Of a stretch of 64,000 nt of DNA, positions 30,802 to 39,153 are shown one piece after another. Both the position numbers and the translations under genes were made by a program. Source of the stretch: an uncultured Acidobacteriota bacterium (lineage in GTDB: Bacteria; Actinomycetota; Acidimicrobiia; Spongiisociales; ZC4RG35); NCBI GenBank assembly GCA_963746905.1, contig CAVVCY010000003.1:484419-548418 (forward strand), read 5' to 3'. Position 1 is the stretch's first letter. Each line of letters begins with the position of its first letter. The notes below the pieces were generated by a model that was not told where the DNA came from, ran no database searches, and saw only the letters and a list, made by a program, of their open reading frames with translations.

Positions 30802-31338
30802 GAACTCGACGAGTCGGTCTTCAGACAGATTGCCGATTGGAAGTCGCCCATCCTCGATCGGACCCTCCCTGACCTATCCGAGACCGCCAGCTACTCCCGA
30901 ATCTGGATCGTTGCCTCTCTGGGACTCGCCGCCTTCGGCGGGCCAAAGGGCAGGCGCAGTGCCGTCCTGGGTATGGCTGCGATAGGCGCGACGTCCGCCC
31001 TGACCAATATCGCGCTCAAGGGAGTGGCGAAGCGACGACGCCCGGTGAGTGAGGTTCCTGAGGCGCGACGTCTCGTCCACCCGGAATCCACGTCCTTTCC
31101 TTCCGGTCACACCGCCTCGGCCGCAGCATTCTCGGGAGTGGTCGGGCAGGAGATACCGGGTCTGTGGTTGCCCTTGAATGCATTGGCAGGCCTCGTCGGC
31201 TTCTCGCGGATCTACACCGGTGTTCACTATCCGGGCGACGTCCTGGCCGGGTGGCTCGTAGGCAAGTCAGTTGCCGGGATGGTCCGCTGGGTGGCCCAGC
31301 GGTTCAAGCGCCGCCAGCCCGCAACAAGCCAACAGTGA
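30766..31338 (+). CDS. PAP2-family phosphatase (phosphatidic acid / undecaprenyl-diphosphate phosphatase-like)
   Basis: KxxxxxxRP (KGVAKRRRP), PSGH (SFPSGHTAS) and SRxxxxxHxxxD (SRIYTGVHYPGD) acid-phosphatase motifs. Confidence 0.8.
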   Translation: MGRQPKALGFLHELDESVFRQIADWKSPILDRTLPDLSETASYSRIWIVASLGLAAFGGPKGRRSAVLGMAAIGATSALTNIALKGVAKRRRPVSEVPEARRLVHPESTSFPSGHTASAAAFSGVVGQEIPGLWLPLNALAGLVGFSRIYTGVHYPGDVLAGWLVGKSVAGMVRWVAQRFKRRQPATSQQ

Positions 31339-32872
31339 TCCCCTCGCGGAGCGCTTGCCAGGAGGCCTCGATGATGTTCTGGTGGACTCCAACCGTTCCC
31401 CACGTTGAATCGCCGTCGGTGGTCTCGATCAGGACCCGCACCCGGGCCGCGGTCCCGTCCGATGAGTCGAGGTCGCGGACCTTGTAGTCGGTGAGGCGGA
31501 GACGTTTCACATCGGGGTAGGCGGCCTCCAACGCCTTGCGCAGCGCCTCGTCCATGGCGTTGACCGGGCCGTCGCCTTCGGTCGACACTTCGATCTCGTC
31601 TTCGTCCACCGCTACCACGAGATGGGCCCGGGCCGTCACCCTGCCCTCCTCGTTGGTCTGGATGCTCACCGACATCGACCGCACTTCGTAAAGCTCCTCG
31701 AAGTCCTCGGTAGCCCGCCGCATCAGCATCTCGAAAGAGCCGTCCGCCGCCTCGAACTGATAGCCGGCGTGTTCCAACTCCTTGACCTGATCAACCAACG
31801 CTTGGGCCTTCTCGGCGTCGAGGTCCCACCCCTTCTCTTCGGCAACGGCCAACACCGTCGAGCGCCCCATCAACTCGCTGAAAAGCATCCGGGCGGAGTT
31901 TCCTACTGCCCCCGGGTCGATGTGCTCGTAGGCCCCTTCGAGACGTGCCAAACCCGACGTGTGGAGCCCGGCCTTGTGGGCAAAGGCCGATGCGCCGACG
32001 TAAGGGCGACGGGAATCGATGGGGGCGCCCAGGATCTCGGCTATCTGCTGTGCGATCGGGTAGAGGCGAGCCATCGACTCCCATGGGATGGTCTCCACGC
32101 CCGACTTGAGGCTCAGGTTGGGGATGACCGAGCACAGGTCGGCGTTGCCGGTTCGCTCCCCGTAACCGTTCACGCATCCCTGGACCTGATGCACTCCATG
32201 GGCCAGCGCCGTCATCGAGTTGGCGACCGCACAGTCGGAGTCATTGTGGAAATGCACGCCGAGCGTGGTCTCGATTCGTGTTTTCACCGCGTCGAGAGCG
32301 GGGATGATGTGAGAGGGCAAGGCTCCCCCATTCGTGTCACAGAGCACCACTCGCTCCGCGCCGGCGGAGGCGGCGGTCTCCAACACAGACAGGGCGTAAT
32401 CGGGGTTGGAGCGGAACCCGTCGAAGAAATGTTCGGCATCGAAGAAGACCTGTTTCCCCTGGCCTCGGAGAAACTCGATCGATTCGCCAACCATGGCCAG
32501 GCCTTCCTCCAACGATGCGTTGAGGGCATCCGTGACGTGACGATCCCAGGCCTTGCCGACGATGCACACGTAGTCGGTGTCGGCCGCGAGCAACGCCTGG
32601 AGCTGGGCGTCCCTCGCCACCTGCTCCCGTGGCCGGCGAGTGGACCCGAAAGCGACCAGGATCGACCGCTCCAGCGACAGCTCGCCCTTCGCCCTCTGAA
32701 AGAACTCGTCGTCCTTGGGGTTGGCCCCGGGCCAGCCCCCTTCGATGAAGTGGACTCCGAGCTCGTCGAGCAGGTGGACGACTCGCAACTTTTCCCCGAC
32801 CGTTGGCGACAGGCCTTCGGCCTGGGTGCCATCACGCAGGGTGGTGTCGTAGATCTCGGCTGTCTGGTTCAT
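31304..32872 (-). CDS. cimA: (R)-citramalate synthase / short-form 2-isopropylmalate-synthase family (CimA-like)
   Basis: From the ATG at 32872: MNQTAEIYDTTLRDGTQAEG...; 522 aa (the short LeuA/CimA class); AAGGTG RBS 8 nt upstream. The alternative TTG at 32890 would overlap the attenuator U-tract. Confidence 0.8.
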   Translation of the reverse strand: MNQTAEIYDTTLRDGTQAEGLSPTVGEKLRVVHLLDELGVHFIEGGWPGANPKDDEFFQRAKGELSLERSILVAFGSTRRPREQVARDAQLQALLAADTDYVCIVGKAWDRHVTDALNASLEEGLAMVGESIEFLRGQGKQVFFDAEHFFDGFRSNPDYALSVLETAASAGAERVVLCDTNGGALPSHIIPALDAVKTRIETTLGVHFHNDSDCAVANSMTALAHGVHQVQGCVNGYGERTGNADLCSVIPNLSLKSGVETIPWESMARLYPIAQQIAEILGAPIDSRRPYVGASAFAHKAGLHTSGLARLEGAYEHIDPGAVGNSARMLFSELMGRSTVLAVAEEKGWDLDAEKAQALVDQVKELEHAGYQFEAADGSFEMLMRRATEDFEELYEVRSMSVSIQTNEEGRVTARAHLVVAVDEDEIEVSTEGDGPVNAMDEALRKALEAAYPDVKRLRLTDYKVRDLDSSDGTAARVRVLIETTDGDSTWGTVGVHQNIIEASWQALREGITVGLLRAGGA

Positions 32873-32953
32873 GGATTCACACCTTGCCAAAGAAAAGACC
32901 CCCGCAGTCTGCGGAGGTCGTGAGGGGGCGGCGCCTCAGGTGAGGCGCGAACC
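32873..32953 (-). promoter_or_regulatory. Transcription attenuator: pause/anti-terminator hairpin (about 32925-32942) and intrinsic terminator (about 32890-32918) between the leader peptide and cimA
   Basis: Minus-strand RNA: ...UAG GGUUC GCGCCUCA-CC-UGAGGCGC CGCCCCCUC ACG ACCUCCGCA-GAC-UGCGGGGGU CUUUUCUUUGGCAAGGUGUGAAUCC AUG. The terminator has a 9-bp stem, a 3-nt loop and a U-tract. Confidence 0.6.
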
Positions 32954-32998
32954 CCTAGGGAATGATGATGTGCGCAGTTGCCTGGATTCTTCCTCGCA
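32954..32998 (-). CDS. Leader peptide MRGRIQATAHIIIP (14 aa) of an Ile-responsive attenuator
   Basis: ATG at 32998, three consecutive Ile codons (atc atc att), then Pro and TAG. It lies directly upstream of a hairpin and an intrinsic terminator preceding cimA. Confidence 0.6.
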
Positions 32999-33075
32999 TC
33001 GCAGGGCCAGTATGGGTGGAGCCAACTAAATCGTCAAGACGTGGTGGAGACGGTGGTTAGGGTCGCGCCGTCTCC

Positions 33076-33981
33076 ATGGACCGTTACGCCCCGATCCCCA
33101 CACCGGAGCAGTTAGAGAGCTTGGGCGATGACCTCGGCGCTTCGCTCTCCTATGACTATCGGATACTCGGTGGGCTCGGCGGCACAATGGATGTGCTTCG
33201 GACCGACCTCGACAGGGTCGTGCTCAAGCGGTACTGGCTTCCTGAGCCCGACGAAGGCATCAATCCGGCGGAGTCGGAGTATCGGGCTCTGGCCCTTGCC
33301 GCCGAGCATCGAATTCCGGCCCCCTCACCGCTCTGGATCGACAGGGCCGGGCTGTTCCCGGAACGGGCCGTGGTCATCTCATTCCTCGAAGGCATAGTGA
33401 TACTCGAGCCAGCCGACCCGATGGACTGGGCGACCCAATTGGCAACGGTGCTGACCGAGATCCACGGGATGCGGCCTTCCGCTTCCGACTCCATCTTCCC
33501 CACTCTGGGCCACGACGACGGGCACACCTCGGAGGAAGCGGTGCTCGAGCATCCCCTGGGAGCGGAGCTTTGGAAGCGGCGGTCCGAGGCTGTCGCCACC
33601 CTGGTGCCAGACGAGATGGTGTACGTCCACCACGATTTCTGGCCGGGTAACACGCTGTGGGTGGATGAGCGCCTGGTAGCGGTCGTCGACTGGGAAGGCG
33701 GCTCCATTGCCGATCCCGCGCTCGACGTCGCCAACTGCGCGCTCGACATCAGGCTGCTGGGCAACGATGAAGTGGCGGATCACTTCGTCGCCGAGTACCG
33801 AAGGATCTCCGGGCGACCCCTGACGAATTTCGGTTATTGGGAGATCAATGCCGTCTGTCGGCCGATGCCAGATGTCGCCATGTGGTTGCCCGGGTGGCAG
33901 GCCGTGGGACTCGACGTCTCACCGGACGAAGTCCGCCGCCGTCACTGGGAGCTGATCGAGATCGTGATCAATCGCAACTGA
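33076..33981 (+). CDS. Aminoglycoside-phosphotransferase-fold (APH/choline-kinase family) protein kinase-like phosphotransferase
   Basis: Brenner motif HHDFWPGNTLW and DWEGG metal-binding motif; 301 aa. Confidence 0.75.
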   Translation: MDRYAPIPTPEQLESLGDDLGASLSYDYRILGGLGGTMDVLRTDLDRVVLKRYWLPEPDEGINPAESEYRALALAAEHRIPAPSPLWIDRAGLFPERAVVISFLEGIVILEPADPMDWATQLATVLTEIHGMRPSASDSIFPTLGHDDGHTSEEAVLEHPLGAELWKRRSEAVATLVPDEMVYVHHDFWPGNTLWVDERLVAVVDWEGGSIADPALDVANCALDIRLLGNDEVADHFVAEYRRISGRPLTNFGYWEINAVCRPMPDVAMWLPGWQAVGLDVSPDEVRRRHWELIEIVINRN

Positions 33982-33993
33982 GGTTGCTCTTCC

Positions 33994-35262
33994 TCAGGTG
34001 CTGGCGGCCCGCCACAGGTTGCCAGCGACCGAGTCGACGTCGTGGTCGGCGTTCGCCAGCACCACGACGACGACGCCTGGATTCTGAAAGCACAGCGCCA
34101 CGGTCCTGTATCCCTCATCCACGATGCCCACGAGGCCCAAAGCCCCGGACTCGTAGCCGTATTCCGACCGCCTGTCCCAGATACCGAGCCCGTATTCGGG
34201 CCGTTCCTCGAAGTCGGTCATCTCGTCCACCGACTCAGGCGAGACGACCTGACCGGCGCACAATGCCCTCCACCATCGGGCGAGGCTCGGTGAGTCCGAC
34301 GCCATGTTGGCCTCGGCGGTCTCGGCGGTCACGCGGGCGAGCGACGGGAGAGATCCGCCGTTCTCCCCGAATGTGTCGGCCGACGCACCGAGCGGCATCG
34401 CCATCGGATCGGTTGGCCGCTCGTCCGGCTGATAGATCAGACGCTCATACCCGTCGCCGTCGAGGACCTCGCTGCGCAGCACCTCGGCAACCGACCGACC
34501 GGTGACCTGTTCGACGATCAAGCCGAGCAGCACGGCGTTGGTTCCCACGAACTCCCAGTTCTGACCGACCGGGGTGCGTTCAGGTCCGACCGTCGCAATC
34601 ACCTCTTCAGGCGTCCAGGCGTGCAGCGGGTCGGTAGTGAGGCTCTCCCACTGCACGGGATCGGGAAACGTATCTGGGAACCCGCTGCGGTGACTGAGGA
34701 GATCAGCAATGCTCGCGCCGTTGGTGTCGAACTCCAGGTCGGGCGGAAGGCGATCGGCGGCGAGATCGTCGAGACCGAGCCCGCCTGCTTCGACCAGCTG
34801 CATCACCTGGGCCGACACCACTGTCTGCGTGATATGAGCGATGGACATCTGATCTGTTGGGACCATCGCGCGATCCCCGGCAGCGAAGCCGGTTGCACCA
34901 CTCCAGGTCCCTTGCGGTGTGATCAGCGTCGCCGTGAGCCCATCACCTTTAGCCGACCCGTCCAGTACCTCTTGAAGCTCGGCCGCCAACTCATCAGAGA
35001 CGGGCTCGTCACCAAGGCCAGCGAACAGGGCAGTCGGGAACCCGTCCGACTCGGCGGACACCACGCTGGTCGAAGCACTGCTCGCGAATGTGGTCGTCGG
35101 CGCCTGCGTCGTCGTGGGCGCCTGCGGCATCGTCGGCGTCGTCGAATCTGGCGACGCCTGATCCGCTGTACACGAGGCGAGCACCACCAGAGTGGCGAGC
35201 CACGTGACAGGAGATCGACGCCTCGAGGCACCGAACGTACGACGGATCGAAATCGCGCTCAC
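33994..35262 (-). CDS. Beta-lactamase-fold serine hydrolase lipoprotein (class C/DD-peptidase-like) with an atypical S-I-A-H in place of S-x-x-K
   Basis: Probable GTG start at 35262, giving signal ...RRRSPVTWLATLVVLASC|TAD. The region MSIAHITQTVVSAQVMQLVEAGGLGLDD aligns to the SxxK-helix of AmpC-like enzymes, but Lys is replaced by His. Confidence 0.7.
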   Translation of the reverse strand: MSAISIRRTFGASRRRSPVTWLATLVVLASCTADQASPDSTTPTMPQAPTTTQAPTTTFASSASTSVVSAESDGFPTALFAGLGDEPVSDELAAELQEVLDGSAKGDGLTATLITPQGTWSGATGFAAGDRAMVPTDQMSIAHITQTVVSAQVMQLVEAGGLGLDDLAADRLPPDLEFDTNGASIADLLSHRSGFPDTFPDPVQWESLTTDPLHAWTPEEVIATVGPERTPVGQNWEFVGTNAVLLGLIVEQVTGRSVAEVLRSEVLDGDGYERLIYQPDERPTDPMAMPLGASADTFGENGGSLPSLARVTAETAEANMASDSPSLARWWRALCAGQVVSPESVDEMTDFEERPEYGLGIWDRRSEYGYESGALGLVGIVDEGYRTVALCFQNPGVVVVVLANADHDVDSVAGNLWRAAST

Positions 35263-38286: not shown

Positions 38287-39153
38287 TCAGCCGCAGACCA
38301 GGCCGCTGGTGGCGATGGTGGCCTCCAACACCTCGAGGCCTGACTCTCGGAAGGCACCGGCAACCCTCACCGCCTGATCGACGGAACATAGGGCCAAAAC
38401 CGACGGCCCCGCTCCGGAGCGTGCCGCGTGCAGGGCTCCAGCCCGTTTGGCGATCTCGATCAAGCCATTCACCTCCGGCGACAACTCCGCCCTTGGCGCC
38501 TCGTGTATCTCGTCGCCATGAGCCGCGGCGAGAGTCTCCGGGTCTCCGGTGATCAGCCCCGCTGTCAGCGCGGCCACCCGGGCCAGGCTCCGCCGCACCA
38601 CATCGTGGTCATGGACCGAGTCGATGACGCGGCGGGCGTCGTCAGTTGGAAGATTCCCCTCAGGGATCGCCACCACCACCCTGAGCGTGGGGTGAATCGG
38701 GAGTCGGATCGGCATCCCCTCGGCCGGCACCAGGACCAGGCCGCCGTAGACCGCGGCGGCGACATTGTCGGGATGGCCTTCCAACTCGGCAGCGATCCGG
38801 AAGACTTTGTCCGGGTTGGCTTCGTCACCGAGGGCTCGCATAGCAGCAGCAGCACCGGCAACGAAGGCGGCCGCCGACGAGCCCAGCCCCTTTCCCATTG
38901 GGATGCTGGCATCGACTTCCAGAGCGAGCGGCTGCTCGTCGCCCACCACCATCCTCGCCGCATCCAGGACCCCGTCGCCCTCCTCCTGTGAGGGCCGAAA
39001 ACGGCCGACGTGTTTCACGCTCCAACTCTCTGCGGGTCGGGCCGTCACCTGACATCTCATTTCCAATGCGAGGCCGAGACAGTCGAAAGCCGGTCCCAGG
39101 TTGGCCGAGGTGGCCGGCGCGGAGGCAAAAGCGGCCATCTGATCCTGAGTCAC
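38287..39153 (-). CDS. thrB: Homoserine kinase
   Basis: GHMP-kinase motif PMGKGLGSSAA, N-terminal ...NLGPAFDCLGLAL, 288 aa. Confidence 0.9.
   Translation of the reverse strand: MTQDQMAAFASAPATSANLGPAFDCLGLALEMRCQVTARPAESWSVKHVGRFRPSQEEGDGVLDAARMVVGDEQPLALEVDASIPMGKGLGSSAAAFVAGAAAAMRALGDEANPDKVFRIAAELEGHPDNVAAAVYGGLVLVPAEGMPIRLPIHPTLRVVVAIPEGNLPTDDARRVIDSVHDHDVVRRSLARVAALTAGLITGDPETLAAAHGDEIHEAPRAELSPEVNGLIEIAKRAGALHAARSGAGPSVLALCSVDQAVRVAGAFRESGLEVLEATIATSGLVCG

Follow-up and report, generated by a model that had tools for sequence, protein, structure and literature searches.

A predicted isoleucine-responsive attenuator family upstream of cimA in Acidimicrobiia, with two hairpins that do not overlap

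How can a leader carrying a run of isoleucine (Ile) codons and an intrinsic terminator control the gene behind it, when its two RNA hairpins do not compete with each other? This question is raised by the region upstream of the citramalate synthase gene cimA, on the minus strand of a 64,000-nucleotide (nt) stretch of contig CAVVCY010000003.1 from an uncultured bacterium (hereafter the window). An earlier note on this DNA had read the region as a classical attenuator with Ile codons in its leader peptide. On sequence grounds, the leader is very probably a ribosome-mediated, Ile-responsive leader-peptide transcription attenuator controlling cimA, and it would belong to an attenuator family conserved across Acidimicrobiia. 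The word "classical" had to be given up, as the first hairpin and the terminator do not overlap and no antiterminator pairing was found.

The gap of 204 bp between cimA and a divergent plus-strand open reading frame (ORF; 33076-33981) holds, on the minus strand, a promoter, a leader ORF, two hairpins and a ribosome-binding site. The promoter is of the sigma-70 type (33037-33009), with TTGACG (33037-33032) and CATACT (33014-33009) on either side of a 17-nt spacer, and 9 nt (33008-33000) lie between its -10 hexamer and the ATG (32999-32997) of the leader ORF (32999-32955). The 14 codons and stop of this ORF (ATG CGA GGA AGA ATC CAG GCA ACT GCG CAC ATC ATC ATT CCC TAG) encode the peptide MRGRIQATAHIIIP. 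The three presumed regulatory Ile codons described in the earlier note are present as ATC ATC ATT at 32969-32961, followed by a single spacer codon, CCC, and by the stop codon TAG (32957-32955); the span given for the leader, ending at 32998, missed one base, the A of the ATG at 32999. Hairpin 1 (32955-32925) consists of an outer and an inner helix and is part of the minimum free energy (MFE) structure. Its outer helix of 5 bp pairs GGGGU (32955-32951) with GCCCC (32929-32925) and begins at the G of the stop codon, and its inner helix pairs GCGCCUC (32948-32942) with GAGGCGC (32937-32931). A hairpin had been correctly noted here, as an 8-bp stem GCGCCUCA/UGAGGCGC, but 8 bp would leave a loop of 2 nt; RNAfold gives 7 bp closed by a 4-nt ACCU loop, in addition to the 5-bp outer helix. 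A 5-nt linker, CUCAC (32924-32920), leads to the stem of the intrinsic terminator (32919-32897), in which GACCUCCGCA and UGCGGGGGUC form 10 pairs around a GAC loop, and the U-tract UUUUCUUU (32896-32889) follows directly 3' of the stem. The terminator scan reads this element as GACCTCCGCA-GAC-TGCGGGGGTC at 32919-32897 with the tail TTTTCTTTGG. Behind it come the Shine-Dalgarno sequence of cimA, AAGGTG (32885-32880), 7 nt before the start codon, and cimA itself (31304-32872), which starts at the ATG at 32872 and encodes a citramalate synthase of 522 residues. The strong terminator, the AAGGTG ribosome-binding site and the cimA ATG had all been predicted in this order and were found.

The U-tract ends only 16 nt short of the cimA ATG, which leaves cimA without room for a promoter of its own, and its transcription should therefore depend on read-through of the terminator. 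A promoter scan of the 4 kb from 31000 to 35000 returned one site only, TTGACG-17-CATACT, where 0.2 were expected, and the same scan gave the terminator described above. A 69-nt core folds into both hairpins at -41.5 kcal/mol, compared to -24.1 ± 3.0 kcal/mol for dinucleotide shuffles (z = -5.9; none of 200 shuffles as good), and the fold of a 151-nt region has z = -2.2. The earlier note had asked whether the U-tract hairpin is thermodynamically favoured, and the presence of the terminator in the MFE structure, together with the z-score of the core, answers that it is; in the window leader, hairpin 1 contributes -22.3 kcal/mol and the terminator -16.8 kcal/mol. The leader thus combines a short ORF with clustered end-product codons upstream of a biosynthetic gene and an intrinsic terminator between this ORF and a gene with no separate promoter, two of the features of attenuators in the broad sense. 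The leader ORF has no Shine-Dalgarno sequence. With a -10 hexamer 9 nt from its ATG it would be leaderless or nearly so, as judged from promoter spacing alone, and leaderless translation is common in Actinobacteria (literature cited within PMC13236596).

Is this arrangement a peculiarity of the window? CimA relatives were sought in one genome per species, which gave 80 loci from Acidimicrobiia-type metagenome-assembled genomes, with 50-84% CimA identity. A short ORF ending in III(I)-X-stop, then hairpin 1, then a terminator, was found at about 40 of these 80 cimA loci. Most of the other loci have cimA at the end of a leuB-ilvE-cimA or leuB-cimA operon, and the same module of ORF, hairpin and terminator stands before leuB. 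In the Acidimicrobiales-type genomes of loci L035-L080, the module lies about 2.1 kb upstream of cimA (for instance L061:370-463 and L080:345-443). The leader ORFs have 8 to 16 codons (mode 11) and are located 60-130 nt upstream of cimA. TTGACN-17-CATACT precedes 35 of 36 cimA-type leaders, the end of the -10 hexamer being 6-12 nt (mode 9) from a start codon that has no Shine-Dalgarno sequence. A covariance model, R1, was built from 58 leaders with a structure supplied by hand. It recovers 65 leaders in the window and the 80 loci, and three more were found in metagenome contigs, which brings the total to 68, most of them from metagenome-assembled genomes. In the window R1 has exactly one match, at 32887-32972 on the minus strand (56.7 bits, E = 3.6e-9). 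The three additional leaders came from a metagenome scan with the DNA pattern ATCATYNNNTAGN{0,2}GCGCAYRC, whose 80 loci were mostly chance matches: only L108, L123 and L140 carry real leaders, all before cimA. Conservation of the leader ORF, the Ile codons, the post-stop hairpin and the terminator upstream of orthologous cimA genes, a check set beforehand, is therefore borne out, and the covariance search in relatives that had been suggested finds the same architecture in 68 leaders with compensatory changes in both hairpins.

Pair counts were made on an alignment fitted to the model structure, for which the slid and shuffled controls were clear. RNAalifold applied to a plain MAFFT alignment recovered only 6 terminator pairs, variable loops being misaligned, and the covariance-model realignment was used instead. 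In the latter, standard pairs occupy 90.6% of cells compared to 74.3 ± 0.7% in column shuffles, and double-sided changes number 188 compared to 54.6 ± 8.5. Compensatory changes were observed at 17 of the 19 pairs. They occur at 8 of 8 pairs of the hairpin 1 core helix, where 90.9% of cells are paired, and at 7 of 9 pairs of the terminator, where 95.8% are. When the 3' partners were moved by 1 to 3 columns, pairing dropped to 33-59%. Since covariation exceeds that of both the shuffled and the slid controls, the two hairpins are RNA structures under selection, and the presence of U-G wobbles shows that selection acts on the sense RNA. The idea that hairpin 1 might be a DNA operator palindrome was rejected, as U-G wobbles and compensatory changes point to the sense RNA.

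What the leader would sense can be read from its last codons. The peptide sequence of the cimA leaders is not conserved, except for a C-terminal III or IIII, one more codon and the stop. The composition of this tail follows the operon behind it: pure Ile, III or IIII with the rare variants IGI and LIL, before cimA alone; VIII before leuB-cimA (L067); mixed Ile/Val tails such as IVVIP, VVIIP, VIVIS, IVIQ and VIIIS before leuB-ilvE-cimA; and VLLI before ilvB (L005). The Ile logic that the earlier note had put forward for cimA agrees with these tails. Codon choice is also particular. Nearly every leader contains ATT, and the Val codons of the leaders are mostly GTA; in the genes of the window, ATT makes up 9% of Ile codons and GTA 3% of Val codons. 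The leader stop codon is UAG in 54 of 68 leaders, compared to the preference of the window genes for TGA over TAG (20 vs 6), and the G of UAG is usually the first paired base of hairpin 1. A specific role of release factor 1 in this preference is conceivable.

The VLLI tail belongs to a second leader copy in L005, an Acidimicrobiia metagenome-assembled genome, located on the plus strand at L005:6002-6083, about 2 kb downstream of cimA. It encodes the peptide MTNTPLTTVLLIT, ending in Val-Leu-Leu-Ile, and precedes the N-terminus of the large subunit of acetolactate synthase (ilvB; ORF from 6101). The tail resembles the LVVI of the Mycobacterium tuberculosis ilvB1 upstream ORF (uORF). In three variant cimA leaders (L007:770-846, L020:2416-2493 and L015:2345-2431) the Ile run is broken or reduced, the peptide ending twice in IGIT and once in GLILT. 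Their hairpin 1 and terminator are unchanged, and the codon two before the stop still encodes Ile or Leu.

These observations bear on the possibility that the ORF is not a sensor at all, the terminator being a constitutive partial terminator or the end of a small RNA and the Ile run incidental or part of a functional micropeptide. Mutations of leader codons upstream of Streptomyces coelicolor ilvB were without effect (PMC1262725), as would be expected in such a case. A micropeptide fits poorly with a peptide that is unconserved outside its Ile/Val tail, and an incidental run fits poorly with a tail whose composition shifts with the regulated operon, which prefers the rare codons ATT and GTA and which is held at a fixed distance from the stop codon and hairpin 1. 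We consider this explanation very improbable.

If the leader is an attenuator, how does the position of the ribosome reach the terminator? In the classical scheme the two RNA folds are mutually exclusive, and the earlier note had proposed to look for such folds. None was found, and hairpin 1 and the terminator stand side by side in the MFE structure of every member. When terminator pairs were forbidden or penalised in 34 leaders, no consistent alternative emerged: the structures obtained were unrelated to one another and 3-15 kcal/mol worse, and they kept hairpin 1. Duplex energies between segments of the leader were set against those of composition-matched shuffles in 65 or 34 leaders. Beyond this control, complementarity across the 65 leaders was confined to the arms of hairpin 1 with each other (mean Z = -3.6) and to those of the terminator (Z = -3.3). 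The classical 2:3 pairing, between the 3' arm of hairpin 1 (B) and the 5' arm of the terminator (C), has a mean Z of +0.67, with none of 65 leaders significant, and is if anything avoided. The 5' arm of hairpin 1 (A) against the 3' arm of the terminator (D) gives +0.36, and the ORF, whole or its 5' half, gives Z of about 0 against every arm. B plus linker against C, loop 1 against C, the tail of the ORF against C, D or B, the linker against D, and loop 1 against loop 2 show no more complementarity than the shuffles either. Two further candidates were dropped: a pairing of the Ile codons with the tail of the U-tract (UGAUG with CAUCA) occurs in a few members only (Z = +0.59), and a pairing of arm A with the cimA Shine-Dalgarno sequence appeared in one MFE structure of the window sequence and is not conserved in relatives. 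Stop-codon read-through or frameshifting at hungry codons into the terminator has no frame-specific signal either, the three frames being about equally open (32, 25 and 32 of 34 leaders).

Two defining features of trp-type attenuators are therefore missing. No antiterminator sharing bases with the 5' arm of the terminator was found in 65 leaders, and the regulatory codons do not lie inside segment 1, the last of them being 8 nt upstream of hairpin 1. An Ile-responsive T-box is not indicated either, as no Rfam T-box family matches and the leader after the ORF comprises only about 65 nt with two simple hairpins.

A classical attenuator could nevertheless be present if the antiterminator pairing were short, tertiary, pseudoknotted or non-canonical and had escaped detection, for instance between the loop of hairpin 1 and the 3' arm of the terminator. 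Characterised leader-peptide attenuators all use overlapping alternative structures (PMC13236596; PMC11857589; PMC10272879), the loops of hairpin 1 are rich in A and C, as the 3' terminator arm is in G, and contacts of 3-5 bp can be drawn in many members. However, loop 1 against D (Z = +0.18) and arm A with loop 1 against D (+0.45) do not exceed shuffles, any more than B with C or A with D, and the folds obtained without terminator pairs are inconsistent as well as costly. A contact of 3-5 bp cannot compete with a GC-rich stem of 9-10 bp whose 5' arm is adjacent. An antiterminator of this kind is improbable.

The answer may rather lie in the spacing of the parts, which is nearly fixed in the 68 leaders. 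One codon separates the last regulatory codon from the stop in 58 of them. Hairpin 1 starts within the stop codon in 56 leaders, its first paired base being the last base of this codon in 39 (range -3 to +1). Counted from the first base of the last regulatory codon, hairpin 1 begins after 8 nt, a distance that lies between 7 and 9 nt in 51 leaders and between 5 and 11 nt overall. Hairpin 1 itself is 21-35 nt long, with a median energy of -19.5 kcal/mol, and is followed by a linker of 0-7 nt (median 3 nt) and by a terminator with a median energy of -16.7 kcal/mol. The mRNA helicase boundary of the ribosome lies about 11 nt from the first base of the P site, in agreement with the spacing of structures that stimulate frameshifting. 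A ribosome stalled on the last regulatory codon should leave hairpin 1 folded, because the helix begins 8 nt after the first base of the A site, just outside the ribosome. When the stop codon occupies the A site, nearly all of the 5' arm has to be opened by the ribosome. Hairpin 1 would therefore be present under Ile starvation and absent when translation is completed.

On this basis, we tentatively propose the following sequence of events. Transcription would begin a few bases upstream of the leader ATG, and the 14-codon ORF, which no Shine-Dalgarno sequence precedes, would be translated by a ribosome. With ample Ile-tRNA, this ribosome would reach the UAG within the base of hairpin 1 and unwind its 5' arm. 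Melting at the stop codon would free about 20 nt of single strand and lift any constraint on the terminator, 5 nt downstream, which would fold and stop transcription 16 nt before cimA. When Ile-tRNA is scarce, the ribosome would stall with one of the three Ile codons, the last of them the rare AUU, in its A site. Its mRNA-entry edge would then be exactly at the first base pair of hairpin 1, which would fold wedged against the ribosome, with only 0-7 nt left to bridge to the 5' base of the terminator stem. To terminate, the base of this stem must sit within the RNA-exit channel of RNA polymerase, and ribosome, hairpin 1 and polymerase could not all fit. The lower part of the stem would fail to complete during the pause at the U-tract, and polymerase would read through into cimA. 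In such a geometry hairpin 1 would loop out about 26 nt and pin the 5' base of the terminator to the surface of the ribosome, so that the signal from ribosome to polymerase would pass by geometry and not by base pairing. We infer a steric rather than an alternative-pairing action because hairpin 1 and the terminator have no bases in common and are not complementary to each other, and we equate folded hairpin 1 with read-through because a gene of Ile biosynthesis must be induced under Ile shortage. Our confidence differs between the parts: the steric mechanism specifically is a tentative proposal that we hold at less than even confidence, and the statement that combines an Ile-sensing attenuator with a steric step seems to us reasonably probable. 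That this would be a new form of ribosome-mediated attenuation, without an RNA antiterminator and with a hairpin placed at the entry edge of the stalled ribosome 0-7 nt from the terminator, is possible but doubtful.

Part of the same geometry could be explained without the stalled ribosome, if hairpin 1 alone blocked the base of the terminator in the exit channel. Read-through would then be the default, and termination would depend on translation. Hairpin 1 is generally the more stable of the two elements, with a short linker between them, and 62 of 68 leaders have their stop codon within the hairpin base; the regulatory logic would be preserved, as starvation or absence of translation would lead to expression. 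However, hairpins near terminators in other attenuators and in small RNAs do not stop termination, linkers of 4-7 nt, which 22 of the 68 leaders have, that of the window among them, should be long enough to thread the RNA out of the exit channel, and the position of hairpin 1 at the leading edge of a stalled ribosome would have no explanation. A block by hairpin 1 alone is thus rather unlikely.

We give a somewhat higher, though still low, probability to a role of hairpin 1 mainly in pausing or synchronising polymerase, in the manner of the trp 1:2 hairpin, the outcome at the terminator being set by NusA, NusG, Rho or polymerase kinetics. Leaderless initiation needs an emerged 5' end, and polymerase would have to be delayed if an 11-codon ORF is to affect a terminator situated some 60 nt downstream. 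Since hairpin 1 would be melted only by a ribosome already past the Ile codons, release from the pause would depend on Ile. Many of the U-tracts are interrupted (UCUUUCAUUU, UUCUCUAU), and terminators with interrupted U-tracts tend to be factor-dependent in Bacillus and Mycobacterium. A slow polymerase also raises attenuation at ilvB1 of M. tuberculosis (PMC13236596). A pause alone, however, would have the same outcome in starved and replete cells and leaves regulation unexplained, as it does the constraint of the linker to 0-7 nt. No pause consensus is conserved downstream of hairpin 1; at the expected +1 position, leuB-type leaders have no G.

Several points weigh against the Ile-responsive attenuator and its proposed steric step. 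The whole leader family is known from computational evidence. Base pairing gives hairpin 1 no route to the terminator, and the step by which stalling would lead to read-through is our inference. Untranslated RNA is predicted to form both hairpins. In other attenuators, a hairpin beside a terminator does not by itself block termination, and for this reason the steric model has to include the stalled ribosome. In the clade of the window, in L005 and in L010, linkers measure 5-7 nt, more than a purely steric model would prefer. The transcription start, and hence leaderless translation, is placed from the spacing of the promoter only. Finally, the regulation of the S. coelicolor ilvB leader was unchanged when its candidate regulatory codons were mutated (as reported in PMC1262725), so that actinobacterial leader peptides do not always act as predicted.

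Where does the leader stand among known attenuators? Its closest relatives appear to be the uORF attenuators of branched-chain amino acid (BCAA) genes in actinobacteria, namely M. tuberculosis ilvB1, Corynebacterium glutamicum ilvBNC and the ilvB-II motif. With this class it shares a uORF with BCAA codons and no Shine-Dalgarno sequence, as judged from a predicted start site, followed by a post-stop hairpin that a terminating ribosome would mask; it has no homology to Rfam models of the class (cmscan of 32000-34000, E ≤ 10). The M. tuberculosis ilvB1NC leader (PMC13236596, 2026) likewise has a short actinobacterial uORF with branched-chain codons near its end (LVVI, with the rare GUA). Its stop codon is directly followed by a hairpin, and a Rho-independent terminator with a U-tract lies further downstream. 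Its post-stop hairpin forms when the ribosome stalls at LVVI and is masked when the ribosome reaches the stop, as supported by reporter and SEnd-seq experiments, and an abundant short terminated transcript is made (PMC13236596). As far as the two can be compared by description, the difference is that the post-stop hairpin of ilvB1NC is an antiterminator exclusive with the terminator, whereas the hairpins of the cimA family do not overlap; the target, cimA or leuB-ilvE-cimA, also differs. The Corynebacterium ilvBNC leaders (three-hairpin, PMC11857589; ilvB-II, PMC10272879) resemble ours in a uORF rich in Ile, Val and Leu, in two stems, P1 and P2, of which P2 is the intrinsic terminator, and in control by the speed of leader translation. 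Their uORF spans P1, whereas the cimA leader ORF ends at the base of hairpin 1, and their antiterminator is formed by the P1 loop with the 3' side of lower P2, or by an overlapping hairpin, whereas the corresponding pairing of loop 1 with the terminator is at chance level here.

The enterobacterial attenuators (trp, his, thr, leu, ilvGMEDA, ilvBN) have in common with the cimA leader a short ORF with tandem end-product codons, a terminator before the first gene and a stop codon near a hairpin that the terminating ribosome covers. They possess a Shine-Dalgarno sequence, regulatory codons inside segment 1 and a 2:3 pairing that overlaps the terminator, whereas the cimA leader lacks a Shine-Dalgarno sequence, has its codons 8 nt upstream of the first hairpin and shows no 2:3 complementarity. 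Absence of an antiterminator RNA has a precedent in Escherichia coli pyrBI and pyrE, where a ribosome close to polymerase prevents the terminator hairpin from forming. There the ORF runs into or up to the terminator and the signal is UTP-dependent pausing, whereas some 36 nt lie between the end of the cimA leader ORF and the terminator, and the folding of hairpin 1 would have to bring ribosome and polymerase together. Leaders with missing components have also been reported from Actinobacteria: short ORFs rich in Ile, Val and Leu upstream of ilvB, with U-tract terminators and without antiterminators, whose mode of regulation was stated to be unclear (Seliverstov et al. 2005, PMC1262725). The ORFs of those leaders overlap the terminator hairpin, and that study did not cover Acidimicrobiia or cimA (PMC1262725).

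The cimA leader had been thought not to be usually annotated, and this holds for Rfam 15 and the literature that we searched. No leader peptide or attenuator for cimA or citramalate synthase was found in that literature, and the Rfam 15 search of positions 32000-34000 (E ≤ 10) returned no leader, ilvB or T-box family at its gathering score. The sole match overlapping the leader is suhB/mmgR, at 19.9 bits compared to a gathering score of 41, and reflects the generic shape of a hairpin plus a terminator; it was dismissed as chance together with the other sub-threshold matches in this interval (HIV-1_DIS, miRNAs). Within the scope of these searches, the family appears to be previously undescribed, in its target gene and in its unusual non-overlapping architecture.

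The locus raises a second, smaller question, that of the start of cimA. The downstream protein is a citramalate synthase according to the TIGR00977 equivalog model (650.5 bits vs a cut-off of 450), and the match begins at residue 6 of the ATG-initiated protein. The TTG at 32890 falls within the U-tract of the terminator. Close CimA homologues have the same ATGAACCAGACA start at the same position, and related loci have AGGAG or GAGGA motifs, similar to a Shine-Dalgarno sequence, at the equivalent position. By these sequence comparisons, the true start of cimA is the ATG at 32872 and not the upstream TTG, as the earlier note had argued, and the annotated start would move from 32890 to 32872.

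Some observations concern the neighbourhood of the leader and individual relatives. The divergent plus-strand ORF (33076-33981) encodes 301 residues and starts 39 bp upstream of the -35 box of the leader promoter; its product has weak similarity only, to kinases of the thiamine-kinase or aminoglycoside-phosphotransferase type (E = 1e-6). A scan of the window for other leader-peptide-like ORFs returned one implausible match with an RRR run (38469-38519). The closest CimA relatives of the window, at three loci (L001-L003) with 82-83% identity, have nearly identical leaders. Their label, "uncultured Acidobacteriota bacterium", is probably a taxonomic mislabel, as the other relatives are Acidimicrobiia or Actinomycetota. 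In the leader ORFs of the window (32980-32970, minus strand) and of L002, L003 and L004, GCGCAC(GCC) stands directly before the Ile codons. In other clades the same motif makes up the 5' arm of hairpin 1 (consensus GCGCACRCC), and the hairpin 1 of the window clade is different; its occurrence in the ORF may be a remnant of a rearranged hairpin. The leader module is absent upstream of cimA in L072, a low-GC metagenome-assembled genome labelled Syntrophomonadaceae, where the upstream region is AT-rich and has a hairpin-like element (cctgggagcaggatt...).

CimA catalyses the committed step in isoleucine synthesis by way of citramalate, and its control by a leader peptide would give the first predicted amino-acid regulon for Acidimicrobiia, a widespread and almost entirely uncultured class of actinobacteria. 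One module appears to be used before cimA, leuB-cimA, leuB-ilvE-cimA and ilvB, with its codon content tuned to each operon, and the covariance model can mark such leaders in metagenome-assembled genomes. The family also raises the question of whether a folded hairpin, acting as a spacer, could let a stalled ribosome block an intrinsic terminator from a distance, and it may explain older reports of actinobacterial leaders with "missing attenuator components".

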